In this document: positions 4,727 through 19,366 of the stretch, one piece after another
Layout: the number at the start of each line of letters is the position of its first letter
How positions within the stretch are numbered: position 1 is the stretch's first letter
DNA from: Candidatus Woesearchaeota archaeon
GTDB lineage: Archaea > Nanobdellota > Nanobdellia > SCGC-AAA011-G17 > UBA489
Length of the DNA: 64,000 nucleotides
Direction of reading: 5' to 3'
NCBI GenBank assembly: GCA_964366415.1
Contig: CAYITG010000001.1
Span: forward strand, 583,663-647,662
The notes under the pieces: generated by a model
The model's input: the letters and a program-made list of their open reading frames with translations, nothing else
The model's database searches: none
Told to the model about the DNA's origin: nothing
Program-made: the position numbers and the translations under genes

Positions 4727-4980
4727 TTTTCATGCCTTTTAATCCTTTTATTTCTTAAAGGGTAGTATATGATCCCAAAGATAAGAAATCCTGCGCCTAC
4801 AATAAATGATGCTATAACCACATATTTTATTGTATCGCCTTGATTTTCAAATAATTTCAGTAATGCCAATCCGAAAAGAAATGCTGCACCGGCTGTTCTG
4901 ATATGCGCTAACATTGTTCTTTCATTTGCCAGCAATGTGCGCTCAAGAGCAAGATTATTCAACACTCTTTTCTTTTTCAC
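4723..4980 (-). CDS. DUF202/YidH family membrane protein
   Basis: LALERTLLANERTMLAHIRT signature followed by TM helices. Confidence 0.85.
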   Translation of the reverse strand: MKKKRVLNNLALERTLLANERTMLAHIRTAGAAFLFGLALLKLFENQGDTIKYVVIASFIVGAGFLIFGIIYYPLRNKRIKRHEN

Positions 4981-5186
4981 AGTGTATACTTTCTTTTAGA
5001 CCCTCATAAATTTATCGTTTCTTTGTTTTTTCGGATTTCTTCTTTGTTTTTTATCATATTTTTTCTTTTTATGTTTCTCTTTCCGGTTTTTGATCCCAAG
5101 ACCTTATGAACACTTTGTTTTTGTTTTGCCTTATCACTGTTGGAGGTGCATTTATGTGCTGTAAAATCTATTTTGAACGAGCACTT

Positions 5187-5218
5187 CACTCGTCAAGTAC
5201 CCCCCGAGACTTTATAAA
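5187..5218 (+). promoter_or_regulatory. candidate operator (ACTCGTCAAGT) plus BRE/TATA of the radA operon
   Basis: 26 of 32 nt identical to 16891-16922 without gaps; ends in TTTATAAA. Confidence 0.65.
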
Positions 5219-5289
5219 GAAGGGTGGACTTTTATGTATTATCCCGTCAGGGGATACTGAAACAAAATCCGAACAGGAAGGTGATTTGT

Positions 5290-5547
5290 ATGGCAACTAA
5301 TATGCCCATTCATAAATTTAGAGCAGGCAATATCGAAGCTGCCGTCTGGAGTAATAAGAAAGATGTTGGGGGAGCCATTATGGAGTTTAAAACTGTTAGT
5401 TTAAGCAGAAGCTACCTCAAAAAAGGAGAAGACATGTGGAGAAGTGATGTTATTAATTTACGACGCAATGATCTCCAAAAAGTTATTTTAGTGATGCAAA
5501 AAGCTCAAGAACAATTACTTCTTACTGAGCGGGATGATGATGAATAA
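5290..5547 (+). CDS. small hypothetical protein coupled to radA, possible PC4-like ssDNA-binding fold
   Basis: AGGTGA SD; PIHKFRAGNIEAAVW...VSLSRSY...W pattern; acidic tail; TAATG overlap with radA. Confidence 0.7.
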   Translation: MATNMPIHKFRAGNIEAAVWSNKKDVGGAIMEFKTVSLSRSYLKKGEDMWRSDVINLRRNDLQKVILVMQKAQEQLLLTERDDDE

Positions 5548-6617
5548 TGCAAGCCCAAGAATATGAGACCAAGAATACTGAGAAAGCTGCTGAGAAACTA
5601 TCTAAAGTAGAACCGAAGAAAGAGCAGAGCGCTATAAAAGAAGAGAAGGTCGCAGCAAAGGAAGTGACAAAGGAATTACAGATTACCGATCTGCCAGGTG
5701 TTGGAGCAGCGACTGCCGAGAAATTAACCCAAGCAGGATTTGATTCTTTGCTTAGCATTGCTGTTGCTAGCCCGGGAGAGCTTGTTGAAGTTGCGGGTGT
5801 AACTGAAGCTGCCGCACGAAAAATTATCAATGCTGCACGTGAAAATTTGGCCATGGGTTTCGAAAGCGGAGATCTGCTCATGAAGAAGCGCGAGCAAATC
5901 CTTCGTATCTCTACTGGAAGCAAAGCTCTTGACGCTTTATTTGGCGGCGGCATTGAGAGCAATGGCATCACAGAATGTTATGGGCAGTATGGTGCTGGTA
6001 AATCTGCACTTGCGCATCAGCTTGCTGTCAATGTTCAACTGCCTAAAGAAAAGGGTGGAGTTAATGGCATGGCTGTCTGGTTAGATACAGAAAGTACGTT
6101 CAGACCTGAACGCGTCAAGCAGATTGCTGAAGCACAAGGCATGGATGTGCAAAAAACCTTAAAGAACATTCGTGTTGCACGCTGTTTCAATAGCGACCAT
6201 CAGATGTTGCTTGCTGAGAAGGTGGAAGATTTGATTAAGAAAGAGAACTTGCCTATCAAATTGCTTGTTGTTGATAGCTTGATGGGGCATTTTCGCTCTG
6301 ATTTTGTGGGACGAGGTATGCTTGCTGATCGACAACAGAAAATAAATAAACATATCCACGCCTTGCTGAAATTGGCAACAACATATGGCATAGTAGTGTA
6401 TGTTACGAATCAGGTTATGTCACGACCAGATGTCTTTTTTGGCGACCCGACAGAAGCTGTTGGCGGACATGTTGTTGCTCACGGCATGACAACGCGGACG
6501 TACCTTCGCAAAGGAAAGAAGGGAACACGTGTTGCTAAGATGATTGATTCTCCATACATGCCTGACGCAGAAGCTGCCTTCAGAATTACAGAAGGAGGAA
6601 TTAGGGATGCAGAGTAA
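5547..6617 (+). CDS. radA: DNA repair and recombination protein RadA
   Basis: N-terminal HhH LPGVGAATAEKL, Walker A GQYGAGKS, DTESTFRPER, Walker B LLVVDS, TNQV. Confidence 0.97.
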   Translation: MQAQEYETKNTEKAAEKLSKVEPKKEQSAIKEEKVAAKEVTKELQITDLPGVGAATAEKLTQAGFDSLLSIAVASPGELVEVAGVTEAAARKIINAARENLAMGFESGDLLMKKREQILRISTGSKALDALFGGGIESNGITECYGQYGAGKSALAHQLAVNVQLPKEKGGVNGMAVWLDTESTFRPERVKQIAEAQGMDVQKTLKNIRVARCFNSDHQMLLAEKVEDLIKKENLPIKLLVVDSLMGHFRSDFVGRGMLADRQQKINKHIHALLKLATTYGIVVYVTNQVMSRPDVFFGDPTEAVGGHVVAHGMTTRTYLRKGKKGTRVAKMIDSPYMPDAEAAFRITEGGIRDAE

Positions 6618-6634
6618 TTTTTCCCTTTTTCCTT

Positions 6635-6720
6635 ATGGCAAGTGATCTTACACGCGGCATTAAAGTAAGCGACTTGGCACGATGGGAATGGTGCAACGAA
6701 GAAGCTTACTTGCGATGTCA
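6635..6720 (+). pseudogene. possible N-terminal remnant of a Cas4/Exo5-like nuclease
   Basis: IKVSDLARWEWCNEEAYLR resembles the first Cys motif of Cas4-like nucleases; the frame runs into the antisense tRNA. Confidence 0.3.
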
Positions 6721-6740
6721 TTTTTTCATCATAGAAAATA

Positions 6741-6814
6741 CGGGCAGGCGAGGATTTGAACCCCGATTACAACCTTCGCAGGGTTGTGTTCTATCCAAGT
6801 TAAACTACCCGCCC
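6741..6814 (-). tRNA. tRNA-Arg(GCG)
   Basis: GGGCGGG acceptor stem, anticodon arm CAACC-CTGCGAA-GGTTG, T-loop GTTCAAATC; no intron, no encoded CCA. Confidence 0.95.
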
Positions 6815-6871
6815 AGTGTGGTTTGTGAGTTTGGAGGAAGGTTTATAAATCTCTCTTTCAGGCTTCTGTTT

Positions 6872-7045
6872 ATGAAAGGCACTATTACTTGCATTAGCTG
6901 TCATAAACCACTTACCAATAGCCAGGGTAGTACGATCTTTTCTTGCCCTCAATGTGGAAAAACACAGATTGTTCGTTGTTATGCCTGTAGACAGATTGCG
7001 GCCCGTTATGAATGTCCAGAATGTCAGTTTAGTGGGCCTAACTAA
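6872..7045 (+). CDS. DUF1610 (HVO_2753-like) double Zn-ribbon protein
   Basis: CISC..FSCPQCG..RCYACR..YECPECQFSGP; TATA at about 6842; family usually lies next to EF-1beta. Confidence 0.9.
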   Translation: MKGTITCISCHKPLTNSQGSTIFSCPQCGKTQIVRCYACRQIAARYECPECQFSGPN

Positions 7046-7848
7046 TTCTTGAATTGCGATAATGTTTGTTGTTGTTTTATTTCTTTTAGCTGTTGCTTCA
7101 TATGATCAAAAATAGGAGTTGCGATGTATCCTTGCTCCATACTTCCTAAAACCGCATATTTTTCTGGATGTGACCAGCAATAATAAGCAATATATCCGCA
7201 GAAGACAGCGTCGATGACGTCTTCGAATTCTTTTTGCTTCTTAGGCGTTAGTTTTGTTATGTTTGTTGACAGTAATTCTGATGAAATGTTCACTGATGGC
7301 TTTGCTTCTTTTAATGCTGCAAGAAGGTCGAGATATCTCTGGAATTCTTTTTGTTGTGTTTTCTTGTCTCTATTTGGCTTTGTTTTGTATTGTAATATTT
7401 TTTGAAGATTGAAGAGCACCACCATCGATGGATGCGGGTACACTTCGAATACTTTTCGTACTTGTTCATATTGTTTTATGTATGGATTATGGTCAAATCC
7501 TTGCTGAACAAGATATTTTGTTAACACTTCTCCACGAATTGTTCCTGACCATTGACTGAGACGTTTTCTGTTTGATGGATGAGCACCAGCATTGTATTTT
7601 CTAAATAACAAGCCAACAACTCTTTCTGCTTCTCTTCTTCCTTCTTCATTGGGAACAATTAAAGGAGCATCAATTGCTATAAGTGCATCTTTTGTATTCA
7701 CATATTGTTTAATGATGGTAAGGATTTCTTCATCTGTTTGTACAGCTGTTGCATATGCGAGCGTTGCTTTCTTTTGATTGCCTTCAAAAATGGAGACTCC
7801 CGTTTTATTTCTTGGTGACCATGCAAGATCGATACCTACGAAGAACAT
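7042..7848 (-). CDS. DUF429 family predicted nuclease (RNase H-like fold)
   Basis: FVGIDLAWS, IAIDAPL, FEVYPHP, EDVIDA motifs; GGAGG SD. Confidence 0.85.
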   Translation of the reverse strand: MFFVGIDLAWSPRNKTGVSIFEGNQKKATLAYATAVQTDEEILTIIKQYVNTKDALIAIDAPLIVPNEEGRREAERVVGLLFRKYNAGAHPSNRKRLSQWSGTIRGEVLTKYLVQQGFDHNPYIKQYEQVRKVFEVYPHPSMVVLFNLQKILQYKTKPNRDKKTQQKEFQRYLDLLAALKEAKPSVNISSELLSTNITKLTPKKQKEFEDVIDAVFCGYIAYYCWSHPEKYAVLGSMEQGYIATPIFDHMKQQLKEIKQQQTLSQFKN

Positions 7849-7895
7849 TTCCTCCACCCGATAATCTTAAAAACTGACTTTCTTCCTCCCTTTCT

Positions 7896-8171
7896 ATGGG
7901 AACAGTCCTTATCACTTATAAAATTATGCCTGAGAGCTCAGATGTTGACTTGAATAATTTTGAAACTGAAATAAAAAGCAAGATTGAGGGTTTTGGGGGA
8001 CGCATACTTGACACCCGGGAAGAAGAGATTGCCTTTGGCTTGAAGGCGTTGAAAGTTATTTTTGCTTTAGATGAGAAAAAAGGAGACACTGAACCTTTAG
8101 AAATAGAATTACAAGGTCTGCACTATATCCAAAGCGTTGAGGTGGTGGATGTGCGGAGGCAAATTGGATAA
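7896..8171 (+). CDS. ef1b: elongation factor 1-beta
   Basis: KIMPESSDVDL...EEIAFGLKAL. Confidence 0.95.
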   Translation: MGTVLITYKIMPESSDVDLNNFETEIKSKIEGFGGRILDTREEEIAFGLKALKVIFALDEKKGDTEPLEIELQGLHYIQSVEVVDVRRQIG

Positions 8172-8813
8172 ATGGCACAAGATACACCTTTAACCGAGCA
8201 ACATATCAAAGAATTGAATGACATTGCCAGATTGCCACCGGAACAACAGCAACAACGTTTACAAACTTTCTTGAAAACTTTAACACCTGAACAGATTGAT
8301 TTCTTGAAAAAACAACAAGGCGGAGAATGTTTGTTTTGTTCTCTTGCTGATGGAAAGATTCCTTCTAAGAAAATCTATGAAGATAGTGCTTATTTAGCCG
8401 TCTTGGATATCAAACCAGCTTCGAAGGGACATGTGCTCTTGTTCCCTAAGAAACATTACCAACTTTTGGGGCAAATGAGCGATGAAGAAACTGGAAAACT
8501 TTTTGTTCTTGCCAATAAACTAAGCAGAGTTGTTTTTGAAACAGTGAAAGCAGAAGGAACGAATATCCATCTTGCCAACGGCGGAGCTGCTGGGCAGACC
8601 ATGCCGCATGTTGTTGTTCACATTATTCCCCGATGGAAGAATGACCACGTTGGGTTTTTTTGGGAAGGACAGAAGATTGATGAACAGGAGATGAATGCTC
8701 TTCATGCTCAAATGATTCAACTTGTTCCGCAACTTCTAGCTCCACCGAAAGAAGAGATTAAAAAAGAAACGCCCGCAGTTGTTTCATGGAATGAAAAGAA
8801 AAGAATACCTTAA
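8172..8813 (+). CDS. HIT family hydrolase with N-terminal helical extension
   Basis: CLFC, GHVLLFPKKH, AGQTMPHVVVHIIPR (the middle triad His appears replaced by Val). Confidence 0.85.
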   Translation: MAQDTPLTEQHIKELNDIARLPPEQQQQRLQTFLKTLTPEQIDFLKKQQGGECLFCSLADGKIPSKKIYEDSAYLAVLDIKPASKGHVLLFPKKHYQLLGQMSDEETGKLFVLANKLSRVVFETVKAEGTNIHLANGGAAGQTMPHVVVHIIPRWKNDHVGFFWEGQKIDEQEMNALHAQMIQLVPQLLAPPKEEIKKETPAVVSWNEKKRIP

Positions 8814-9310
8814 TTTTTCCTAGCGTACTTGGCGACTTTGCGAAACGTTGCTAATAATTCATTCGTTTTTTGCTCCGTAGTTTTATCTTCTATTCTTAGT
8901 ATACTTGCCGTTTCCTCTATAAGTGCGTAAGCTTCTTCTGGATTTAGAGGTAAACATTCTCTTGGTAACTTCCACTTATAAGGACAGAAAAAATCCATGC
9001 ATTCTTCTTCGCTTGTTAATCGATTTCTTATTTCTCCTTTTACTTTTTCTCGGTATCCTAGATTTTCATTTTTTCTGCTTTCATTATCATTACATACTTC
9101 AAGCGCATATACAAAGAATCTGCTTAATAATCCTTCATTGGTTCCAAATACTCCTTCTTTGCTTAAATCTAAGCTCTCTTTTTCCACTACCGTTGTCACA
9201 TACAACTTTGCATTATATTTCCAATCTTCCGTTAGGAACTCTCGTAATCCCAGAGTTTCTATGGTATTATTTCCAATCCTTTCTACTCTTTGCTCTATTG
9301 TTTCTTCCAT
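8810..9310 (-). CDS. hypothetical protein
   Basis: 166-aa ORF translationally coupled to the prepilin peptidase gene. Confidence 0.6.
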   Translation of the reverse strand: MEETIEQRVERIGNNTIETLGLREFLTEDWKYNAKLYVTTVVEKESLDLSKEGVFGTNEGLLSRFFVYALEVCNDNESRKNENLGYREKVKGEIRNRLTSEEECMDFFCPYKWKLPRECLPLNPEEAYALIEETASILRIEDKTTEQKTNELLATFRKVAKYARKN

Positions 9311-10176
9311 TATATTATCCCTATAATTTTCCCACTTATAATTGTTATTACTGCTCCTAAAAAGAATGGAGGAATGAAAGGAATACCTTCCTTTACCAAT
9401 ACTTTCCCTATTTTTGCCTTGATTAGTTTGCTAATATCCTCTTGTTCGATACCTAACGTTTTCTTCTTGTAGAGTAATTTTCCATTTTTGTATACGTCTT
9501 GTTCTACCCAATCTCCAGGCGTTAATTTGTTTACCGGAAGATGCTTCATTAATGCTACTTTTTCTACTCCTTTAATGAGGACTGTAAGATAGGGATATAC
9601 TAACAGTAATAATGCTAGTCCGCCTATCATCATTTTTACTTGCTCATCCAATTCTGTTGTTACTGTAATTAAAGCAGAGATTGCTGCAAAGAACAATGCA
9701 CATATCTTCATTACAATCATTTTTTTTCCATGATTTATTTTTTTAGCTTCAGGAAAAAATTGTTTTCTGTTCTTTGTTGCTAATATAATTCCATATACAA
9801 TCCCATACAATGCTCCTACAATTAAAATATTAATTACCATCACAGCAAGAAAAGGAAGATCATTCAACGGAAGAAATGATGGGCGTGTTGCAAAAATAAT
9901 TCCAATTCCCATGATGAGCTTTGTATCGCCACCACCCCATTGCTTTGCTCGAAACATGAGATTTCCTACAACCATCATCACACCAAAACCTAAGATGCCA
10001 TACCATAGATAATTCCATTCGTTGTACATGACTGAATATAAGATTCTTAATATGAACCCTGTGAATATTAATCCGTAACTGATCCAATCTGGAACTTCTC
10101 TTGTTTTCAAGTCTGAAATTGAAGCTATCAATAGTGCAAGAAGACCAATAGCGACTAACAGAATATCCATCATCAT
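9310..10176 (-). CDS. A24 family prepilin peptidase (class III signal peptidase)
   Basis: ASISDLKTREVPD and GGGDTKL catalytic Asp motifs, C-terminal IPFIPPF, multiple TMs. Confidence 0.92.
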   Translation of the reverse strand: MMMDILLVAIGLLALLIASISDLKTREVPDWISYGLIFTGFILRILYSVMYNEWNYLWYGILGFGVMMVVGNLMFRAKQWGGGDTKLIMGIGIIFATRPSFLPLNDLPFLAVMVINILIVGALYGIVYGIILATKNRKQFFPEAKKINHGKKMIVMKICALFFAAISALITVTTELDEQVKMMIGGLALLLLVYPYLTVLIKGVEKVALMKHLPVNKLTPGDWVEQDVYKNGKLLYKKKTLGIEQEDISKLIKAKIGKVLVKEGIPFIPPFFLGAVITIISGKIIGII

Positions 10177-10225
10177 AATAGCAGCGTAACCTTAACTTTA
10201 TAAAGATTATTGGCTTTGTTTGTTT

Positions 10226-11341
10226 ATGGTACGTGTTATAGGCGCTGGACCTTCTGGAAACTATGCTGCTTACTTACTTGCGCGTAAGGGAGTAGATGTT
10301 GATGTGTATGAAGACCACGATATTGTTGGTAAACCTATCCAATGTACCGGTATTATGACCTCTTATTTGAATAATCTTATCCATATTGATGGTTGGGAAG
10401 ATTTTTTGGTGAATACTATTGATGGCACGAGAGTTTTTGGGCCTGATGGAGAATCTGCGTATGTCAAACTGAAAAAAAATTACATTGTTGATCGCGCACT
10501 CTTTGACCAGCATCTTGCAAAACTTGCGCAAGAACATGGCGCTGATTATCATTACAAACATCGTTTTACTAATGCTCAATTTAGAAAAGATCATTTAGAT
10601 ATTTCTTTTGCCAATGGAACAACTGTGCAGGATACGACGTTGATTGGCAGTGATGGACCTGGAAGTTTGGTTGCTAAAAGTGCTGGCTTGTTTGGCGAGA
10701 GAAGATTTGTTGTTGGCGTGCAAGCACGTGTTTCTTTGAAGCACATTGATCCTACAATTGTTGATTTTTATGTGGATAAGAATGCTGATGGTTACATAGG
10801 GTGGGTTGTTCCGGAGAATGATCATATTGCACGCATCGGTGTTGCCAGTTATCAGCATGCCCATGACTATTTTCAGGAATTATTGAAGAAAACTGGTGGA
10901 AACATTTTGGAATGGCAATCTGGAGCTATACCTTTGTATCAACCCAGGCAAGCCATGAGCGTTACACGACAAGGATCTTCTGTTTTTTTATTAGGAGATG
11001 CTGCCACGATGGTGAAAGCAACTACGTATGGAGGCATTATTCCTGGGATGATGGCTGCTGAAGAACTTGCACAGGTTATTTTACGAGGAGGTTCTGCAAA
11101 ACAGTATGAACGTGCTTGGAGAAAGCGCGTTGGCAAAGAACTATGGTTGCATTTAATGATACGTAAGTATATGGACAAGTTTAGCTTAGCAGATTACAAA
11201 AGATTAATTCAGTATACTAATCAAGAGAAGGTTTTAGAAGTCCTTGAAGAACATGATCGAGAGTATCCTAGCAGATTATTGTTTAAGATATTATGGAGAG
11301 AGCCACGATTTTTGAGATTTATTTTTTCAGCACTCTTTTGA
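10226..11341 (+). CDS. geranylgeranyl reductase family FAD oxidoreductase
   Basis: IGAGPSG, PIQCTG, GSDGPGS, GWVVP, LGDAA..VKATTYGGI. Confidence 0.88.
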   Translation: MVRVIGAGPSGNYAAYLLARKGVDVDVYEDHDIVGKPIQCTGIMTSYLNNLIHIDGWEDFLVNTIDGTRVFGPDGESAYVKLKKNYIVDRALFDQHLAKLAQEHGADYHYKHRFTNAQFRKDHLDISFANGTTVQDTTLIGSDGPGSLVAKSAGLFGERRFVVGVQARVSLKHIDPTIVDFYVDKNADGYIGWVVPENDHIARIGVASYQHAHDYFQELLKKTGGNILEWQSGAIPLYQPRQAMSVTRQGSSVFLLGDAATMVKATTYGGIIPGMMAAEELAQVILRGGSAKQYERAWRKRVGKELWLHLMIRKYMDKFSLADYKRLIQYTNQEKVLEVLEEHDREYPSRLLFKILWREPRFLRFIFSALF

Positions 11342-11344
11342 GCT

Positions 11345-11557
11345 ATGGATCCAAGAACTTTATATCTGAGGATGGAAAAACTTCAACGACAATTTGAATC
11401 TCCTACTGAAAATATAGAACAATCTTTAGAAACATTGACAAATGCGTTGCTTTCGGTTCAAGACGAGTTTAGAAATGCTTCTGGATTTACCGCAATTGAT
11501 CCTGATTATAGAACTGCTCGCCTTATTTACCTTACTCTACGAAAATACATAACCTGA
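11345..11557 (+). CDS. hypothetical protein
   Basis: 70-aa ORF starting 3 nt after the upstream stop. Confidence 0.5.
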   Translation: MDPRTLYLRMEKLQRQFESPTENIEQSLETLTNALLSVQDEFRNASGFTAIDPDYRTARLIYLTLRKYIT

Positions 11558-11683
11558 GAACGATATGCCTTTCCTTTTTTTGTGAAAATTCATATAATCT
11601 CTTATAGCTCCTTTGTGCTTCTAACCAAAGTTTTATATAATACAATACTGCCTATTGGTTCTTGAAGAAGGTGGTAGGGAACA

Positions 11684-12871
11684 ATGAACTTTAGGAAAAA
11701 AGGTGATGCCTCTGCTAATGCTATGTGGCTTGTTTTAATCATAGGATTGTTCCTTGTTGTTTACATTATTCTTTTGCCTGTTGGTGAAAAAGAAAAACTT
11801 GTAGGCATTCAACCCATTTATGGACCAACAACCGGTGGTTCTGGAGGATCTCTTTCAGGAGGCTTATTGCTTCAAGAGAATCCTGGCGTTCTTTATCCTC
11901 TTATTCGACAAGTCGTTGGAAAACCTTTGGCTTCAGTCAATCTCTTTTCTTATACTGAAGGAGAACAACAAGGATTAGCCAATACTGTTACTGTTGAGCA
12001 CGGATTTTTTGGAGAACAAGAAAAAGAACTATCTTTTTTCCTCAATGATGTTCGCACTGTACAAGATGTCCAACTCCTTTTTTTAGTACGTGAAGCGAAA
12101 GGGGATCTTATCATACGCTTAAATGGTGAAGAAGTTTTTAGAGGAGAACCAACAACTGAAGATTTGCCTCTTCGTTTACCTCCGCATTTATTGAAACAGA
12201 TTAACAAACTTATTTTTACTGTGAGCAATCCTGGCCTTAATATATTTAAAACAAATGTTTATTCTCTTAAAGATGTTCAGCTCTTTGTACGTCATCGCTT
12301 GGAAAATAAGAGAGAAGTACGCACGTTTGTCATGAACAAAGCAGATGCTCAAAGCGTGAAACATTTGACGTTATTCTTTGTCACTAATTGCTTTACTGTG
12401 GAAGAAGATGGGCGCTTGATTATTTTGCTTAATGGCAAGGTTATCCATGATGCTCTCGTTGTGTGTGATGCAGGTCCTATTGCTGTTGATATTGATCCGC
12501 AAGACATTCTTGAAGGAACCAATACTCTTGAGTTTGGCATCGATCAAGGAAAATATGTTTTAGAGCAAGTTGTTTTAGAGAAAGATGTTGGTGAACATGA
12601 GCCTACGCGGTATGTATTTACTATGCAAGTTGCAGATTTCAATAGAGTTGGTGTTGGAGGACGCATTGTGATGGATATGCAGTTTGCTCCAGATGGATTA
12701 CGCAAGATTGGTGCAGTATATATTAATGGTTACCCTATCTACTTCGACACTTTAGATTATACTTTTGTTTATGACGTTACTGGTCTTGTAGGACCTGGTA
12801 CTAACATTGTTCGCATTGTTCCTGAGGTGCCTGTCGATATTACTGCATTCAACATTGGTTTTGGATTGTAA
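11684..12871 (+). CDS. class III signal peptide protein with repeated beta-rich domains
   Basis: RKKG/DAS plus TM; repeated IxLNG...GxNxL pattern three times. Confidence 0.75.
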   Translation: MNFRKKGDASANAMWLVLIIGLFLVVYIILLPVGEKEKLVGIQPIYGPTTGGSGGSLSGGLLLQENPGVLYPLIRQVVGKPLASVNLFSYTEGEQQGLANTVTVEHGFFGEQEKELSFFLNDVRTVQDVQLLFLVREAKGDLIIRLNGEEVFRGEPTTEDLPLRLPPHLLKQINKLIFTVSNPGLNIFKTNVYSLKDVQLFVRHRLENKREVRTFVMNKADAQSVKHLTLFFVTNCFTVEEDGRLIILLNGKVIHDALVVCDAGPIAVDIDPQDILEGTNTLEFGIDQGKYVLEQVVLEKDVGEHEPTRYVFTMQVADFNRVGVGGRIVMDMQFAPDGLRKIGAVYINGYPIYFDTLDYTFVYDVTGLVGPGTNIVRIVPEVPVDITAFNIGFGL

Positions 12872-12882
12872 AAGAGGCATGC

Positions 12883-14637
12883 ATGACTGATTCATTTTTG
12901 CACAAGGATGATTTTTCGTATTTTCTTAAAGTTCCTTTTTCTTCCAACCCTTCTGCTCCAGCACCACGCGCAGGCGTGAATTGGCGAGCCATACGTGGAA
13001 CTGCAGGTTATGCTGCTGGTAGAGGATTACGAGCGTATTATACTGGACAACGCAGAGCACAAGGTGTGAGAAATCCACAACATGCCTTTGTGTTTGGATT
13101 CATCATGGATGTTGTGACGATCGCTCTCCTTGGCACAGGGCAATTCTTTTGGTACTTGATTGCAGTTGGAGTGTCTATTCTTGTAGGTTTGTATTTTGTT
13201 GGTTGGCCTTCACTTTTAAATATCTTGAAAGTTTATCCTGGAGGATCCTTAGGTTATCTTCCTATCTTTACTTTAGCTAGCATCTTAGGACATGTTGGCG
13301 TTCCAGCATTACGACAAAGCACCTTAGGTAGTGGAGGCGGTAATCCTATTTTTGTTTCTAGTGGCGGAAGTGGTTCGAAAGAATCTTCTTATAGCGCTTC
13401 TTATAAATATGGTCTAGGAAGATATGCAGGAGAAGCTACTGCTGAAGCTTTGGGTAATTTTACACGCTGGTTTGGAAAAATTTTACCTCTTCTTCTCCTT
13501 GTTGGAGGATTTATCTATTTCTTTGCCTTTGGTTTACCTGCACCTTTGCGTGCTGCATCTGTGAGCCAAGGTGAATTTCTTGCTCAGAAATGGAATGTTG
13601 CTGATCGCTTCCAAGACATTGCTTCGTATCTCAATCCAAAGACCGCACTTGAAAAAGCAGCAGGCGTTGGGGATTTTACAACACGACCAGACTATCTCAC
13701 AGAAGGAATACAAGGTGTAGAAATCGAACGGTTTGATGGAAAAAAAGTGTATGAAGGCGATCCGTTCACTTTACAGGCAGAAGTACATGTTGATGCTTTT
13801 CCCCATGATGACAGCACTCTTTCTTTTGGATGTCTTTTGAACGATGGCGAACAGATCATTCAAACTGGAACTGCACAAATTAGTGGATATTCTGAAGGAG
13901 AAAATACTGTTACTGTGCCACAAGGAACGAAGCAACGCACCTTCTTTGTTTATTGTTCTTATGATGGAATTGCGTCTTTAGACACTTCATATAAAAATTA
14001 TCAGGCTCTTCTCACTTGGAGCTATGAAAACATTTTGACTACTTCAGTCTTACGCGCTTTTACTCAACAACGCGTTGTTCAAGATCGCTTGTTTCAACGA
14101 GGATTAGATCCTTTGGAAGATCTGCGCGGCAGTGATTTTGTTGGTACAGACGGATTTGCTCAAGATAATTGCGTCAAAGGATGCGGACTTACAGACTTAA
14201 GCATGAAACTTGGAAGTGTTTTGCCTCTCAGTGAGGGCGTGCCTCATTACCTTGATGTTGCTCTCGTTGGATTGAGCACATGGAAAGGATCTTTACAACA
14301 TCTTCGTGAATTACAACTCCTCTTGCCTGAACAGGATCTTCATTTTAGCGAACAGCGCTGCTTGTGGGAAGGAGGAAGCAACATAGGACAACATCAACAA
14401 GAGCAATCCTTTATTTTAGATGAAAACAGCCCTCAGCTTCAACAGGTTAACACAAAATTATCTGCTGGCGCACCGGTGAAAATTGTTTTTACTTGCACTC
14501 TTACTGCTGAAGGCGGCGTTGAAGATATTCCTGCTCCTGCAACACTCACTGCTCTTGCACGTTATGATTATGGTGGACAAGAACCTGCTTTAGTTCTTGT
14601 TATGAAAAAAGAACCAGAGGTCAGTGGCATAGCATGA
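12883..14637 (+). CDS. multi-TM protein with large extracellular beta-sandwich region
   Basis: N-terminal TMs, Cys-containing C-terminal region ending ALARYDY. Confidence 0.75.
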   Translation: MTDSFLHKDDFSYFLKVPFSSNPSAPAPRAGVNWRAIRGTAGYAAGRGLRAYYTGQRRAQGVRNPQHAFVFGFIMDVVTIALLGTGQFFWYLIAVGVSILVGLYFVGWPSLLNILKVYPGGSLGYLPIFTLASILGHVGVPALRQSTLGSGGGNPIFVSSGGSGSKESSYSASYKYGLGRYAGEATAEALGNFTRWFGKILPLLLLVGGFIYFFAFGLPAPLRAASVSQGEFLAQKWNVADRFQDIASYLNPKTALEKAAGVGDFTTRPDYLTEGIQGVEIERFDGKKVYEGDPFTLQAEVHVDAFPHDDSTLSFGCLLNDGEQIIQTGTAQISGYSEGENTVTVPQGTKQRTFFVYCSYDGIASLDTSYKNYQALLTWSYENILTTSVLRAFTQQRVVQDRLFQRGLDPLEDLRGSDFVGTDGFAQDNCVKGCGLTDLSMKLGSVLPLSEGVPHYLDVALVGLSTWKGSLQHLRELQLLLPEQDLHFSEQRCLWEGGSNIGQHQQEQSFILDENSPQLQQVNTKLSAGAPVKIVFTCTLTAEGGVEDIPAPATLTALARYDYGGQEPALVLVMKKEPEVSGIA

Positions 14638-15569
14638 AATGGATTTTTTTTCTTATTGTCAGTATTTTTCTTGCTGGATGCACACTTCAGAATGCACCAT
14701 CTTCAGGACAACAAATTTTTCATTGTCCTTCTGTCAAAGAAGGCAAAGGTGTTACTGTTGATTTTGTCCAATATGCTCCACCTCCTGAAGTACGAGAAGG
14801 CAGAGATTTTTCTTTAGGTTTAGTTTTTTCTAATGCTTTTGCAGAAGGCATGGATGTTGATCTTACCTTGCAGGACACTGTTGATACGCCCGGATCATTT
14901 CCTGCTGAAGGCGTGCATGAAACTCTTCACCTTGAAGGCGCGGTTGTGGAGAATGATCAATGGTATGAACCTGGATGCAGACTTCTTGAAGACACCGAAC
15001 TTACTGAACATACTTTAGGACCTTACTTTTACAAACCTTTAGCTTTTGAAGATATTACTCATTTTACTGGAAACTTGCGTTATCAAGGACATACTGATGC
15101 TGGCTTTGCTTTCTGCCTTTTTAATCCAGCACAAGGACCGACATCCTGCTCTGCACAAGAACAGATAAGCGGTTCTCAGTTAGGATGGCAAAACATGAAA
15201 GCTCCCGTTATGATTACTGATGTTCGAAAAATCTTGATTGGATCCAAAGAAGGCGTCCATTTGAAATTTGCTTTTGATCTTGCGAATGCTGGCGGCGGCT
15301 ACATTGGTGGCAACAGCGAAATTACTGTTGATGTTACCAGCCAAGACCTTTCCTTTACTTGCTTTAGCGAAGATGCTTCCTTAGACGGAGGACAACATCT
15401 TCAACTTACTCTTGATTCTGAACAAAGTTATACTGCACGTGTTGAATGCGAGACATTCTTGACTTTAGATCGCGTACAAACGTCTCTTATTGAACTTGCA
15501 TTAGAATATTCTTATGTCTATCCTTTTACAAGTGAGGACATGAAACTCTTGCCTGAAAGAAGTCGATAG
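14634..15569 (+). CDS. putative lipoprotein, paralog of the next gene
   Basis: Lipobox LAGC; PPPEVREG..F.L....N, APVMI and LEYSY motifs. Confidence 0.75.
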   Translation: MKWIFFLIVSIFLAGCTLQNAPSSGQQIFHCPSVKEGKGVTVDFVQYAPPPEVREGRDFSLGLVFSNAFAEGMDVDLTLQDTVDTPGSFPAEGVHETLHLEGAVVENDQWYEPGCRLLEDTELTEHTLGPYFYKPLAFEDITHFTGNLRYQGHTDAGFAFCLFNPAQGPTSCSAQEQISGSQLGWQNMKAPVMITDVRKILIGSKEGVHLKFAFDLANAGGGYIGGNSEITVDVTSQDLSFTCFSEDASLDGGQHLQLTLDSEQSYTARVECETFLTLDRVQTSLIELALEYSYVYPFTSEDMKLLPERSR

Positions 15570-15621
15570 TTAGCTTTAAATAGGACAATACGTTTGTAAG
15601 AACTATCAAAAGAGGGACTGC

Positions 15622-16578
15622 ATGAATTCCACTTTATCATCTAAAGCATGGTTATTTCTTGTTATTGGAATCTTATTGATTAGTGGCTGTCAAGGATTTG
15701 GGAAGCAACAACAACCACAACAGACTAATGCTTTTGTTGGTGGCATGAAAGGCATGGACGTTGCCTTTGCAGAAGGTCAACCACCTGCTTCTGTACTGGA
15801 TAAAGGGCAAGAAGAATTTACTCTTACTTTATTGATGCGCAATCTTGGTGAATATACTATTCCGGTTGGTGGTGTTATTGGATCTTTGAGCGGCGTTGTT
15901 CAGAATTCCTTTAGCTTGAAGAGTTTAGATGTTAAAAGCACTGTTGAAGTGTTTGGTGTTACAAAAGATGGAACAACGGTGATTCCTGGTGGAGAGGAAA
16001 TGTTAGAGTTTGGCACTGCTCAATTCAAACCAGATTTACCTGCTGATACGAAATTTACATTTAAAGCTGATGTGTGCTATACCTATCAAACCCAGTCTGT
16101 TAGTACCGTTTGCTTGAAGAAAAATGTCTTGAGGAAAGAAGTTGGTGAGGTATGTCAGATTAATAATCCTACTTTAGGACAAGAAAACAGCGGAGCGCCG
16201 ATGCATGTTGAACAAATGAAAGAAAGCAGCGTTGGGAATAATAAAGTACGATTGAACTTTAAGGTTGTCAATAAAGGCATTGGACAAGTGTATGAACCTG
16301 GAACGTTTACGACGAAATGCACGGGTATGGAAAGTGAAAAGAACAGAGTAAAAATCACTGTTGGCTCTTCTGACAGCACTTTTACTTCGAGTTGCACACA
16401 GTTAGGTGGTGGCAATAGTGGCGTTGTTACCTTAGTGAATAATCAGAAAGACATTACTTGTACTATCGATACAACGAACTTGCAAGACATAACGTTCCAA
16501 GATTTAGTTCTTGTGAAACTTGATTACCAATACCGGGAAGCTGTGACGACACCTCTTGTTGTAACGAATGCTGCTTAG
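15622..16578 (+). CDS. putative lipoprotein with Cys-bridged beta-sandwich domains
   Basis: Lipobox ISGC; QPPASV..G..F.L....N, GAPMHV and LDYQY motifs. Confidence 0.78.
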   Translation: MNSTLSSKAWLFLVIGILLISGCQGFGKQQQPQQTNAFVGGMKGMDVAFAEGQPPASVLDKGQEEFTLTLLMRNLGEYTIPVGGVIGSLSGVVQNSFSLKSLDVKSTVEVFGVTKDGTTVIPGGEEMLEFGTAQFKPDLPADTKFTFKADVCYTYQTQSVSTVCLKKNVLRKEVGEVCQINNPTLGQENSGAPMHVEQMKESSVGNNKVRLNFKVVNKGIGQVYEPGTFTTKCTGMESEKNRVKITVGSSDSTFTSSCTQLGGGNSGVVTLVNNQKDITCTIDTTNLQDITFQDLVLVKLDYQYREAVTTPLVVTNAA

Positions 16579-16837
16579 TTTTCAAATGAAATAACAAGAT
16601 AACCATACTTTTCAACATCTTCTTTTGACCAATATTTTGCATCTTTTGTTTTCATGACATATTTGGCTTTCTTTTTTATTGTTCTGCCCGTGTATTGCTT
16701 TGTTGTTGGATCCATTCTTCTAAGATGATTGTATCGCCAGGTTTACACTCAAAATCTGCCAAACGTAACTCTACATTCTTCCTTCCTTCAACGACTTTTT
16801 GAAAGATTTCTGGCCATGACTTCTTTTTGGTGATCAT
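16575..16837 (-). pseudogene. frameshifted DUF3850/ASCH-like gene
   Basis: MITKKKSWPEIFQKVVEGRKNVELRLADFECKPGDTIILEEW, then (D)PTTKQYTGRTIKKK...KYGYLVISFEN in another frame; one G missing near 16712. Confidence 0.8.
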
Positions 16838-16890
16838 GAACTATTTGACTATCTTTTTCATTAAAAACTTTCCGATATTTTTAGAAAATC

Positions 16891-16922
16891 CACTTGTCAA
16901 GTACCCCTGAAAACTATATAAA
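16891..16922 (+). promoter_or_regulatory. candidate operator (palindrome ACTTG-T-CAAGT) plus BRE/TATA of the LAGLIDADG-endoQ unit
   Basis: Matches 5187-5218; TATATAAA ends 22 nt before ATG 16945. Confidence 0.65.
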
Positions 16923-16944: not shown

Positions 16945-18132
16945 ATGACTGCCCAGCAAACAGGAATTGTTTATTTGGAAGATCTCCCACAAGAGAAGAT
17001 TTATGTTTCTCTTAAAAATGACTTGTTTCAATCTCTTAACAAAGAAATCAGAAAGATAGGCATTTTTAAATTTGCCCGTCGATTGAATGTTAGCGAAAGA
17101 ACCATAAATCACTGGCTCACTGAGGGCACTCTTGTGCGTTTGGATGTTCTTATACAGGTCTGTCACCATTTTAATATTAATTATCAGAATCACATCTCTT
17201 ACCTGCGCGGTAAAACCGGCGGTAAAATCTATAATCCCAAACTGCCTTTTGACTTTACTTCAGAGGCTGGTGTTCGCCTCATAGCGAGTATACTAGGGGA
17301 TGGTGGAATATCTAAAAAAAGAAAGATTGCATGTTATTCTAATACCAATAAGGACCTTATTAGGGGATTTTTGTATGATGCTAAACGGGTTTTTGGCGAA
17401 GTAGAATGCACCTCTTGGTCAATACAGAAGAAGAATAGCATTGTTTCAAATGTATCCTCCCCACCAATACTTAGCGAAGTATTTTTTCTATTAGGATTAA
17501 AAGCTGGGAAAAAGGTTGAGATTAATCCCCATATTCCAGAATTCATTTTTACCCTTTCTGATCAACACAAATATACTTTTTTATCTCAATTTATTGATGA
17601 CGAAGGAACAGTAAATGTTGCTGGTAAACATGTCTCTTTAACATCTGCTTGCTTAGAAAAGTATGGAAAATCCCATTTACTTGAAGACATACAAAGACTT
17701 CTTCTTCCATTGGATATTCTTTGTTCTATTTATCCTAGCAAAGTATATTCTTCGAAGAGAGGCGAACCTCGAAAAACCTGGAAATTGCAAATTAATGGAT
17801 CAATTCAGTTAAAGAAACTTTATGAATATTCAAATATTCGAAGCCAAGAAAAAAAAGAAAGGCTATATAGATTAATTAATTCTTATAGTCTTACTATCTT
17901 TCGTAGAAGAGATATTTTAGAAACTTACATTAACTTTATGAGGAAAATACAAACAATTCAGGGATTTTTTACTTCTCTGGATTTAGCGAATGAAACTGGA
18001 AGGGCTGAAGGTAGTTGTAGAAATATGATTGCCAAATACCAAAAATTAGGTATTGCAACATGTATCCAACCTTTAGTTCTTACTAGTAAGGGTGCAGTAT
18101 ATGGGAGGTATGTTTTAGATCCTTTAATTTAA
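16945..18132 (+). CDS. free-standing double-motif LAGLIDADG endonuclease-like protein with HTH domains
   Basis: LIASILGDG and FLSQFIDDEG motifs, YSNTN, N-terminal HTH FARRLNVSERTINHW, C-terminal wHTH-like FTSLDLANETG. Confidence 0.85.
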   Translation: MTAQQTGIVYLEDLPQEKIYVSLKNDLFQSLNKEIRKIGIFKFARRLNVSERTINHWLTEGTLVRLDVLIQVCHHFNINYQNHISYLRGKTGGKIYNPKLPFDFTSEAGVRLIASILGDGGISKKRKIACYSNTNKDLIRGFLYDAKRVFGEVECTSWSIQKKNSIVSNVSSPPILSEVFFLLGLKAGKKVEINPHIPEFIFTLSDQHKYTFLSQFIDDEGTVNVAGKHVSLTSACLEKYGKSHLLEDIQRLLLPLDILCSIYPSKVYSSKRGEPRKTWKLQINGSIQLKKLYEYSNIRSQEKKERLYRLINSYSLTIFRRRDILETYINFMRKIQTIQGFFTSLDLANETGRAEGSCRNMIAKYQKLGIATCIQPLVLTSKGAVYGRYVLDPLI

Positions 18133-18133
18133 C

Positions 18134-19366
18134 ATGAGCTTTTTAGGTGACTTTCATATTCATGGATGCTATGCGCAGGCATGCAGCAAGAATACGACGA
18201 TAGAGAGATTAGAGGAAAATGCTAGAACCAAGGGATTGCATATCCTTGGCACTGGTGATTGCCTACATCCAAAGTGGTATCAGCATCTTACTTCTACGTT
18301 GACTGAAGATGAGCATGGAATCTTGCGTACGAAAACTAATTTTCCCTTTTTATGGCAGACTGAAGTTTCTTTGATGTATACTCATGGAGGAAAAGGAAGG
18401 AGAGTTCATCATGTTCTTTTGTTTCCAAATAAAGAAGCCGTTGAGCAAGCCAGAGATGTGATCTTGAAACGATGGCGCTTAGATTATGATGGGAGACCGA
18501 TCTTTGGTTGCAGCAGCATTGAATTTTTAGATTTAATGAGATCTGTTTCACCTAATATCGAGATGATACCTGCGCATGCATGGACGGCATTTTTCTCAAT
18601 ATTTGGTTCGAAATCAGGCTATAATTCAATTCAAGAATGTTTTGAAGAACGGGCACAGTATATTCATGCGATTGAAACTGGAATGAGCAGCGATCCTGCC
18701 ATGAACAGACGATTATCGCAACTCGATAACATTAACTTAGTTTCTTTCTCTGATCCTCATACGTATTTTCCTTGGAGATTGGGACGAGAAGCTACACGCT
18801 TTGATTGTGACTTAACATATAAAGGTATTTTACATGCTCTTAGAACTGGAGAAGGATTGAAAGGAACAATTGAGACACCACCCGTCTATGGAAAATATCA
18901 TATTGACGGGCATCGTGCTTGTGATGTGCATTTTGAATATGAAGAAACAAAACAGCATAGAGGAATATGTCCGAAATGCAAGCATGATTTAACTTTAGGA
19001 GTTGCCTATCGCGTTGAAGAGCTTGCTGATCGAAAAGAACCTCAGAATGTTCCGTCTTTTGTCAGTGTTGTTCCTTTACATGAACTGATTGCTGCTGTCT
19101 ATGACATAAAACAATTAGCATCGAAGAAAGTGTGGGAAATTTATCGTACTTTGATTAAAACATTCGGCAATGAATTTACTGTTTTGCTTGATGCTTCTGA
19201 AGATGCACTTGCTAAGGTTGTTGATCCTAAACTTGCTCGCGTTATTCTTTTGAACAGAGAACAAAAATTACCTATTGAGCCAGGTTACGACGGAGTGTAT
19301 GGGAAGGTTGTTTTGAATAACCAACAGATTCTTGCTAAACAGAAATCACTAGGAGAGTACACATAA
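18134..19366 (+). CDS. endoQ: endonuclease Q family protein (PHP domain plus Zn finger)
   Basis: DFHIH, GTGD, IPAHAWT, ETGMSSD, SDPH, LGRE, GKYH.DGH, CPKC, PGYDGVYG. Confidence 0.9.
   Translation: MSFLGDFHIHGCYAQACSKNTTIERLEENARTKGLHILGTGDCLHPKWYQHLTSTLTEDEHGILRTKTNFPFLWQTEVSLMYTHGGKGRRVHHVLLFPNKEAVEQARDVILKRWRLDYDGRPIFGCSSIEFLDLMRSVSPNIEMIPAHAWTAFFSIFGSKSGYNSIQECFEERAQYIHAIETGMSSDPAMNRRLSQLDNINLVSFSDPHTYFPWRLGREATRFDCDLTYKGILHALRTGEGLKGTIETPPVYGKYHIDGHRACDVHFEYEETKQHRGICPKCKHDLTLGVAYRVEELADRKEPQNVPSFVSVVPLHELIAAVYDIKQLASKKVWEIYRTLIKTFGNEFTVLLDASEDALAKVVDPKLARVILLNREQKLPIEPGYDGVYGKVVLNNQQILAKQKSLGEYT

Follow-up and report, generated by a model that had tools for sequence, protein, structure and literature searches.

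Two copies of a promoter box in the window

We analysed a 64,000-nucleotide stretch of a Candidatus Woesearchaeota genome (the window; G000:C1:583663-647662, where G000 denotes this genome of 895,721 bp in 4 contigs, with 38% G+C and a completeness estimate of 96.27%). The window contains two copies of a short DNA element, here called the box, each located directly upstream of a TATA box. One copy precedes a unit of an 85-amino-acid (aa) open reading frame (ORF), small85, and the recombinase gene radA, and the other precedes a unit of a free-standing LAGLIDADG gene and endoQ (endonuclease Q). Box copies are found at 13 promoters of the genome, lineage-specific forms occur in relatives, and it seems fairly probable to us that they mark a regulon of recombination and repair genes. 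In a search with RadA as query, the nearest named loci come from Candidatus Woesearchaeota / Nanoarchaeia metagenome-assembled genomes (MAGs), from which the label DPANN, given in an earlier reading of this DNA (the original prediction), is right. The features of the two units are as follows.

5187..5203, plus strand: box copy 1, CACTCGTCAAGTACCCC, upstream element of the small85-radA promoter
5211..5218, plus strand: TATA box TTTATAAA of the small85-radA unit
5290..5547, plus strand: small85, 85 aa, predicted to form four beta strands, a C-terminal helix and an acidic tail
5547..6617, plus strand: radA, with matches to Pfam Rad51 (3e-86) and HHH_5
16891..16907, plus strand: box copy 2, CACTTGTCAAGTACCCC, upstream element of the LAGLIDADG gene promoter
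16915..16922, plus strand: TATA box TATATAAA of the LAGLIDADG gene
16945..18132, plus strand: LAGLIDADG-type protein, 395 aa, free-standing, with an N-terminal region resembling a helix-turn-helix (HTH)
18134..19366, plus strand: endoQ, starting one base after the LAGLIDADG stop codon

The original prediction had aligned two 32-mers of these promoters and proposed an operator shared by DNA repair genes. Direct reading confirmed that the 32-mers at 5187-5218 and 16891-16922 are identical at 26 of 32 positions without gaps, and that in both copies 12 nucleotides (nt) lie between the end of the 11-mer ACTYGTCAAGT and the TATA box, TTTATAAA or TATATAAA. Between the C-run of box 1 and its TATA box there are about 7-10 nt, a figure that varies with the counting of the C-run. 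The 60 bases on each side of the two 32-mers are unrelated. A degenerate 17-mer, CACTYGTCAAGTACCCC, allowing up to 2 mismatches, was found 2 times in the window and 0 times in each of 100 dinucleotide-preserving shuffles. The remark that there was no other full copy holds for the window, while the whole genome has about 13.

Copies and architecture of the box in the genome

For the whole genome, we searched the 13-mer ACTCGTCAAGTAC and obtained 4 exact matches, compared with a mean of 0.02 in 100 locally shuffled genomes. Allowing one mismatch, there are 7 copies (shuffled mean 0.82, maximum 4), and all 7 are followed by a TATA-like box. We also searched the layout ACTCGTCA (at most 1 mismatch)-N15-17-TATA-like heptamer, a scan independent of the position weight matrix (PWM) that was built from ten of the sites. 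It turned out that 14 places have this layout, against 0-5 (mean 1.9) for 30 permuted cores. The copies are thus discrete and not random. Box 1 has the highest PWM score in the genome.

We accepted 13 sites, namely 12 of the 14 layout-scan places and C1:443126-, which escapes the layout scan because its TATA-like box is differently spaced. Three other places, C1:101812+ and C1:243952- from the layout scan and C1:220185-, have the core and a TATA box without a convincing gene start or fit, and were rejected. The accepted copies are dispersed, one per promoter. In a profile of 11 sequences (one of which, the Lhr site, was entered 2 nt out of register), information content is confined to the box (-1 to +13) and the TATA box (+25 to +29), and the spacer, flanks and leaders carry none. 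The conserved box positions are ACTCGTCA..CC, and in the common layout ACTCGTCA..CC is separated by about 10 nt from the TATA box, with translation usually beginning about 52 nt from the box.

Of the first 10 sites, 7 have their start codon 52-53 nt from the start of the box, a distance that fits leaderless mRNAs if transcription starts where we expect it. For instance, the mRNA of the LAGLIDADG gene at 16945 is probably leaderless or nearly so, with its ATG 23 nt after the TATA box. The pseudo-palindrome, which the original prediction had put at the core of the operator, did not prove to be conserved: of the 13 sites, 6 have at least 4 of 5 complementary arm pairs and another 6 have at most 2 of 5, and the boxes of relatives keep only the left half and CC. 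Taken together, the data support the view that the box is a genuine element upstream of promoters, with constant spacing to the TATA box, which promoters in general do not have.

Genes behind the boxes

The genes behind the 13 boxes are listed below.

5187 (window): 85-aa ORF small85, then radA
16891 (window): 395-aa LAGLIDADG_3 protein, then endoQ
C1:119400, plus strand: Lhr-type helicase, 868 aa
C1:345020, minus strand: NreA, 410 aa, with a GTG start at +52
C1:383285, plus strand: 56-aa acidic ORF just behind a gene of the Orc1/Cdc6 family
Six other box sites: free-standing LAGLIDADG_3 genes
One box site: 45-aa ORF and a HEAT-repeat protein
One box site: PurF-like amidotransferase (identified by sequence reading only)

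The gene calls of RadA and EndoQ, on which the claim that both units encode repair enzymes was based, hold, with the correction that box 1 is followed first by small85 and not by radA. There are ten free-standing LAGLIDADG_3 genes in the genome and one intein-type pair. Seven of the ten are preceded by a box, and one of the remaining three is located two genes downstream of a box site. The hypergeometric probability of finding 7 of 10 LAGLIDADG genes among 13 promoters is 1e-12, assuming about 1000 genes. The LAGLIDADG proteins encoded downstream of the boxes share only 13-23% identity with the 16945 protein, which argues that the shared box reflects constraint and not recent gene duplication. 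The sole LAGLIDADG copy that is not free-standing consists of two LAGLIDADG_3 matches within one 1236-aa frame (G000:C1:46448-46981), probably an intein in a large protein.

The LAGLIDADG-endoQ unit

The 16945 protein matches Pfam LAGLIDADG_3 (1.4e-10), and HTH_26 and HTH_3 are below the cut-off. GDG and DDEG motifs can be read in its sequence, and both LAGLIDADG motifs, at the positions where we assume them, contain acidic residues which we take to be catalytic. EndoQ matches the Pyrococcus furiosus EndoQ (PDB 5zb8_A) with 2.7e-50 over residues 5-406 of 410, and TIGR00375 with 5.5e-54, below the curated cut-off.

Among the loci of relatives and this genome that include the endoQ start, a LAGLIDADG gene precedes endoQ in 2 of 18 (G000 and G003). 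The G003 orthologue is 54% identical and has its own box variant. The other 16 endoQ promoters, including that of G002 from the same genus, have a plain TATA box and no box at the fixed spacing. The one-base gap between the two genes leaves no room for a promoter, so box 16891 belongs to the LAGLIDADG gene and endoQ is a passenger; EndoQ as a regulon member in its own right, as originally proposed, is not borne out. The LAGLIDADG gene of box 2 now appears to supply the transcription of endoQ. Its patchy presence is what is expected of a mobile LAGLIDADG homing endonuclease. As for the neighbourhood, many relatives (for example G002, G010, G011, G007, G025 and G030) have radA and endoQ on one contig with 9-30 kb between them, which indicates synteny across the order.

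Box variants in relatives

The exact G000 form of the box, with at most 2 mismatches, exceeds the control only in two genomes of the same genus, G001 with 2 copies and G002 with 3, and in the other 38 relatives it is no more frequent than the reversed pattern that served as control. Since this form is confined to the genus, we moved the comparison to orthologous promoters and lineage variants. The boxes of G001 and G002 precede LAGLIDADG-like ORFs and, in G001, also TnpB-like ORFs (by sequence reading). ORFs of TnpB / IS605 OrfB type are thus seen behind the box in two genera (L014 and L025 in G001, L092 in G003), and the G003 copy matches Pfam OrfB_IS605 and Cas12f1-like_TNB.

Before the radA unit, most genomes of the family have a related box at the same TATA distance, such as CACTCTTCAAACAGC, CACTTCTCAAGTCC and TTACTTCTCAAAGACC. 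More distant forms are found in other families, often as tandem direct repeats, such as CACTGGACACTGGACA, GCAACTTGCAACTGGG, CGACAACACGACAA and CCAAGTGACAACC. These variants also recur within the genomes that carry them. TTACTTCTCAAAGACC has 8 exact, 9 one-mismatch and 3 two-mismatch copies in G003, 5, 5 and 1 in G017, and 1, 5 and 5 in G012, and at 3 mismatches its counts are near the reversed-pattern control. AATTGCAACTTGC has 9 exact copies in G030 (0 for the control pattern), CCCAAGTGACAACCGC has 3 exact and 1 one-mismatch copies in the complete genome of archaeon GW2011_AR20 (AR20), and TCACACTTGCCA has 3 exact copies in G031. The layout is constant in the relatives: box, about 10 nt, TATA, and ATG at about +54. 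In G003, as in G000, spacer and flanks vary between copies and the box is kept.

To summarise the gene content, we searched Pfam with 49 box-downstream proteins from six genomes, a tally which drops 8 loci (5 of 30 and 3 of 17) whose first ORF is more than 150 nt from the box. The most abundant family is LAGLIDADG_3 (17 proteins), followed by Bro-N (4), RhuM (2), PDDEXK_3 (2) and LAGLIDADG_1 (1). Nre_N/Nre_C, DEAD/Helicase_C (Lhr-like), Cas4/PDDEXK_1, DUF559/MTES_1575, Glyoxalase/Ble-like, TnpB (OrfB_IS605, Cas12f1-like_TNB), DUF5680 and HEAT occur once each. No Pfam family was found for the homologues of small85 and of the acidic ORF among the 49 scanned proteins. Besides, DinD is encoded behind a box in G017 (3e-105, above the curated cut-off), and a Cas4-like protein behind one in G003.

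The nine exact copies in G030 precede five LAGLIDADG_3 genes, the radA unit, the site behind the Orc1/Cdc6 paralogue, an RNase_H_2-like gene and one unassigned gene. In G031 the copies belong to the radA unit, two LAGLIDADG genes and the site behind the Orc1/Cdc6 paralogue, and in AR20 to the radA unit, two LAGLIDADG genes and a small ORF without assignment. The radA unit and LAGLIDADG genes are present in each of these sets, so their pairing recurs in at least 4 families despite the changed box sequence.

The original prediction would have lost ground if the motif were absent upstream of orthologues, and lineage variants turned out to be present at the radA of relatives and at many lhr and nreA genes. 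The lhr gene was found in all 25 genomes, and a lineage-variant box-like element, left half only and called by eye, is located at the same TATA distance in 13 of 24 lhr promoters. For nreA (19 of 25 genomes), such an element precedes 9 of 19 genes, with 2 further variant forms, by the same kind of call. As a blind check, the 36 nt upstream of the lhr TATA box were compared with the radA upstream region by the best ungapped 14-mer. At least 12 of 14 identities were found within the same genome in 8 of 22 genomes (13 in four), compared with 24 of 450 cross-genus pairs (13 in 1 of 450). The match between the lhr and radA boxes is a real signal, not a universal one. In about 11 of 23 genomes from several families, the Orc1/Cdc6 paralogue is immediately followed by the lineage's box and, where it could be called, by the acidic ORF; some of these calls were made by eye. 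In general, the box behaves as the site of a transcription factor regulon does: it stands at unlinked promoters and in a fixed position, it is kept while its surroundings vary, and it is kept at orthologues.

A recombination and repair regulon and its rivals

In our judgement, the box is rather likely to be the predicted site of a sequence-specific regulator, and to define a conserved recombination/repair regulon of Woesearchaeales type with nuclease and mobile genes attached. The putative regulator would bind directly upstream of the B recognition element (BRE) and TATA box, at roughly -60 to -43 from the expected transcription start. The conserved core would include the small85-radA operon, lhr, nreA and the small acidic ORF, usually just downstream of the Orc1/Cdc6 paralogue. 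Lineages would have added above all free-standing LAGLIDADG genes, and also TnpB, Bro-N, RhuM, DinD-like, Cas4-like and DEDD/RNase H-like genes. A common signal, such as DNA damage or the state of replication and recombination, would raise the capacity for recombination and repair, and DNA-cutting nucleases, selfish or domesticated, may hang on the same switch, their production then coinciding with the availability of RadA-dependent break repair. The control may be positive or negative; the copies, their layout, the genes behind them and the lineage variants at orthologues are shown, whereas binding, direction and signal are our inference. The repair regulon of the original prediction is therefore partly supported: the observation was confirmed, and the radA unit, lhr, nreA and the lineage variants at orthologues agree with it, while the set of genes is wider than proposed and 7 of 13 copies precede LAGLIDADG genes.

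Several results weigh against such a regulon. More than half of the copies stand before LAGLIDADG genes and not before repair enzymes, and the PurF-like amidotransferase, the HEAT-repeat protein and DUF5680 do not fit repair. A LAGLIDADG gene with a box precedes endoQ in just the two loci described above, and the remaining 16 endoQ promoters are without it. The boxes of lhr and nreA comprise the left half only and depend on calls by eye, and the blind check was positive in only about 8-9 of 22 genomes, with mean identities of 10.9 within genomes against 10.0 for cross-genus pairs. The gap in PWM score between the ten sites (22.5-30.5) and the next-best genome position (17.8) is partly circular, since those ten sites also supplied the matrix. 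Within AR20 and within G030, the copies hardly differ over about 45-60 nt, a stretch that takes in spacer and TATA box, and this suits equally a copy-and-paste spread or gene conversion of a promoter cassette.

The last point leads to the main rival, which we consider unlikely: a mobile promoter cassette that travels with genes of LAGLIDADG/TnpB type and is homogenised by gene conversion, a strong promoter element without a dedicated regulator or a shared signal, which radA, lhr and nreA would have acquired secondarily. Apart from the near-identical modules, it would account for the share of LAGLIDADG genes behind the box (7 of 13 copies here, 17 of 49 downstream proteins in six genomes), for the patchy LAGLIDADG gene before endoQ, missing even in G002, and for the TnpB-like ORFs behind the box in G001 and G003. 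However, throughout the order the radA unit, which is single-copy and vertically inherited, has the lineage's own variant in front of it, as do many lhr and nreA orthologues, the spacers and flanks of G000 and G003 differ between copies where the box is kept, and the LAGLIDADG proteins are very divergent (13-23% identical). More doubtful still is a replication or cell-cycle regulon, in which the box would be a site like the origin recognition box (ORB), read by Orc1/Cdc6 and tying recombination and nuclease genes to the replication state. The box-controlled acidic ORF directly behind the Orc1/Cdc6 paralogue in many genomes, an ORB-like element, TCCACTTGCAAAC..GGGGTGGGG, at an AT-rich stretch before the canonical orc1, which resembles box variants such as CACTTGTCAA and GCAACTTGCAAC, and a weak 3-mismatch site before mcm in G003 all point in this direction. 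But the ORB likeness covers only about 8-9 bases of one such element, no core replication genes are among the strong sites, and radA, lhr and nreA, together with the accessory DinD, Cas4-like and Ble-like proteins, point to repair.

The box could also be a recognition or cleavage site of LAGLIDADG endonucleases, the remnant of a homing site and not a transcription signal. Its conserved 15-30 bp, partly pseudo-palindromic here, have the size of LAGLIDADG targets and are linked to LAGLIDADG genes, yet every copy keeps a rigid spacing to the TATA box and the start codon, the box stands at radA, lhr and nreA promoters without a LAGLIDADG gene nearby, and 13 copies in its own genome would be self-destructive unless protected. 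We regard this explanation as very unlikely. As to chance resemblance or a recent local duplication of the two 32-mers, nothing beyond the AT-rich promoter context speaks for it, and it is ruled out by the shuffles (0 of 100 match), by the unrelated flanks, in which only box and TATA box are conserved, by the 13 genome copies and by the conserved variants in relatives.

Candidate regulator and comparison with known systems

For the regulon reading, we searched the genome for proteins that might recognise the box. A LexA-type Peptidase_S24 (PF00717) had 0 matches in the 96.27%-complete genome G000, in agreement with the absence of LexA assumed in the original prediction, and the control search was positive in 10 of 14 reference genomes. 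TFB is encoded by a single gene, with two cyclin repeats, so a TFB paralogue as alternative promoter reader was rejected; TFB3-like proteins with only a Zn ribbon were not part of this search. Two Orc1/Cdc6 proteins are encoded in G000. The canonical one (404 aa) matches Sulfolobus solfataricus Cdc6-1 at 4.7e-110. The other is a divergent paralogue of 354 aa (G000:C1:382188-383252) with AAA_22 and Cdc6_lid, which matches Cdc6-1 at 1.5e-29 and has no Cdc6_C match, and it is present in 23 of 25 genomes. In G000 it is followed by a box and then by the acidic ORF (G000:C1:382188-383565). In relatives (L213-L234), the acidic ORF has 56-66 aa and ends with ..GFMxGYL.., and its pair with the paralogue is conserved across several families. 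The paralogue's own promoter has only a half-match to the box, with a spacing 2 nt longer, and was not counted as a site.

The region before the canonical orc1 (G000:C1:555900-556300) contains an AT-rich, origin-like stretch and one ORB-like element, whose resemblance to some box variants is faint. ORBs are typically clustered and often inverted around an AT-rich unwinding element beside orc1; the box copies are dispersed instead, and near the canonical orc1 this element was the only ORB-like one found.

The arrangement can be compared with several known systems. In the bacterial SOS response, a LexA box is common to the recombinase and other repair genes, and mobile elements hitch-hike on it. 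The likeness is that recombinase, repair genes and selfish or mobile genes share one operator-type site, whereas here no LexA-type protein was found, the promoter is of the archaeal TATA type, the box is located upstream of the core promoter and the palindrome is not conserved. A box upstream of the core promoter rather than over it suits an activator or a recruitment site. Repair motifs independent of LexA are also known in bacteria, such as mycobacterial RecA-NDp/PafBC and the radiation/desiccation response motif (RDRM)/DdrO of Deinococcus, and their regulons include the recombinase and, in mycobacteria, lhr. RecA-independent induction in mycobacteria was reportedly described by Rand et al. 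in 2003 (cited in PMC8301817). Like the box, these motifs mark a repair regulon that contains the recombinase, but they are bacterial, and their sequences and regulators are unrelated.

Archaeal upstream activating sites adjoining BRE/TATA are known for Ptr2, TFB-RF1 and GvpE types. The box shares with them its location directly upstream of BRE/TATA at a fixed distance, and several box lineages show a tandem direct repeat. Its sequence is unrelated to theirs. WhiA of Gram-positive bacteria is a transcription factor derived from a LAGLIDADG protein, with an HTH domain. Similarly, several box-linked proteins combine LAGLIDADG_3 with HTH or winged-helix parts, and by analogy a box-linked LAGLIDADG-HTH protein could have become a regulator and then autoregulated. 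Unlike WhiA, the proteins here appear, from their sequences, to keep the LAGLIDADG acidic residues, the WhiA family has no Pfam match among the box-linked proteins scanned, and no single box-linked LAGLIDADG protein was shown in all box-carrying genomes.

The closest archaeal parallel comes from Sulfolobales. According to the main text of PMC6061795, a non-initiator protein, Orc1-2, binds the element 5'-ANTTTC-3' (DDRE) and activates a damage regulon, and ANTTTC in the promoters is required for induction; the term 'radA' has 0 occurrences in this main text (PMC6061795). As far as the main text allows the comparison, both systems have a promoter-proximal element common to damage-related genes, and an Orc1/Cdc6 paralogue is the candidate reader here. 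On the other hand, the box is longer and has another sequence (ACTCGTCA..CC, not ANTTTC) and a rigid distance upstream of the TATA box, and the gene set described for Sulfolobales is ups, ced and tfb3, compared with radA, lhr, nreA and LAGLIDADG genes here. ANTTTC is found outside the conserved box positions, where it is accidental in the AT-rich flank of a few copies. By analogy with Orc1-2, the 354-aa Orc1/Cdc6 paralogue would be the most attractive candidate regulator, as a lead only.

Joining these observations, one can imagine a LexA-free, SOS-like circuit, in which the Orc1/Cdc6 paralogue would read the co-evolving box and switch on RadA with a PUR-like, single-strand-binding partner, Lhr, NreA and a small acidic modulator whose gene adjoins that of the regulator. 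Selfish nucleases (LAGLIDADG, TnpB and others) would be plugged into it and cut only when break repair is up, and a GNRA-type mini-hairpin in the leader, maybe bound by the PUR-like protein, would act as a second layer. We hold this complete circuit to be conceivable, if somewhat unlikely as a whole.

To our knowledge, almost nothing is known on gene regulation in DPANN archaea, and we know of no archaeal DNA-damage or recombination regulon with a defined cis element outside Sulfolobales. In the literature searched, no description of such a box was found. A short DNA element with about 13 targets per genome and lineage variants makes the question of regulation testable in uncultivated organisms. 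The arrangement looks like an undescribed repair/recombination gene circuit in DPANN archaea, and suggests that genes of homing-endonuclease type are wired to the promoter type of the host recombinase. Such wiring, if true, would be a counterpart in archaea of the mobile elements that exploit the SOS response of bacteria.

The radA operon: small85 and its leader

Besides the box, the radA operon points to an undescribed partner protein of RadA and a structured leader. The start of radA overlaps the stop of small85 by one base, which suggests co-transcription. In 22 of 25 loci from 24 relatives small85 adjoins radA upstream, and with 35 named MAG loci added, the two genes are neighbours in 52 of 60 radA loci. 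No sequence match to small85 was found in Pfam, NCBIfam or PDB, and a search for related loci with a pattern from the single protein gave 232 matches, none confirmed. The AlphaFold2 model, based on a 22-sequence alignment, has four strands, a helix and an acidic tail, with a pLDDT of 84.9. Foldseek found nothing in PDB at E<=0.001 for this model. The nearest structures by VIA-align are Borrelia single-repeat Pur-alpha proteins (Z 7.4 and 7.2, with 74 and 69 residues aligned), and the next neighbours, at Z 5.6-6.5, are PUR repeats, COMM domains (6.2-6.4) and PC4 homologues (5.6); all these Z values are middling, below the aligner's own caution line of 8. From the model, small85 is possibly a single-strand binder like PUR-alpha or PC4 and a conserved upstream partner of radA.

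The leader of the small85-radA mRNA, with an expected transcription start near 5240, has the following parts.

5243..5284, plus strand: leader of the small85-radA mRNA
5243-5252: variable hairpin
Next in the leader: purine-rich ACUGAAACAAAAU
5269-5277: mini-hairpin CC-GAACA-GG
5280-5284: Shine-Dalgarno-like GGUGA

Across relatives, the leader consists of a purine-rich yUGAAAnAAAA, then a 2-bp stem closing a loop of GAAA type, and then the Shine-Dalgarno sequence, and it is often duplicated. In 34 hairpin instances, chosen without requiring complementarity, the 2-bp stem is paired in 88% of cells, compared with 48% in shuffles, and 0 of 500 shuffles are as high. The pair types at one position are GC (18), CG (11) and UA (2), and at the other CG (19) and GC (10), so the stem covaries, while the unpaired cells are mostly 5-nt loops out of register. 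The motif, searched as a regular expression, has one copy in G000. An Rfam scan of 4900-7100 gave only a tRNA at 6741-6814 on the minus strand and no family for the leader. That the PUR-like small85 might regulate its own leader is speculation.

In some relatives, the radA frames have 732-868 aa and the lhr frames 1317-1383 aa, compared with 356 and 868 aa in G000, and the extra length probably stems from inteins within these box-carrying genes.

Neighbouring genes of the radA unit

A protein similar to RPA / replication factor A, with an oligonucleotide-binding (OB) fold and a zinc ribbon, is encoded at 3722-4726, about 460 nt upstream of box 1, which places a single-strand-binding gene close to that of the recombinase. 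The radA unit is followed by a convergent gene for a DUF429 protein (1.3e-18; 7042-7857, minus strand). The first part of a listed 136-aa ORF at 6635-7045 is an artefact, which overlaps the minus-strand tRNA at 6741-6814 (Rfam, 59 bits). Only residues 86-130 of this ORF match the zinc-finger family HVO_2753_ZBP, and a short zinc-finger ORF near 6890-7045 is probably the actual gene.

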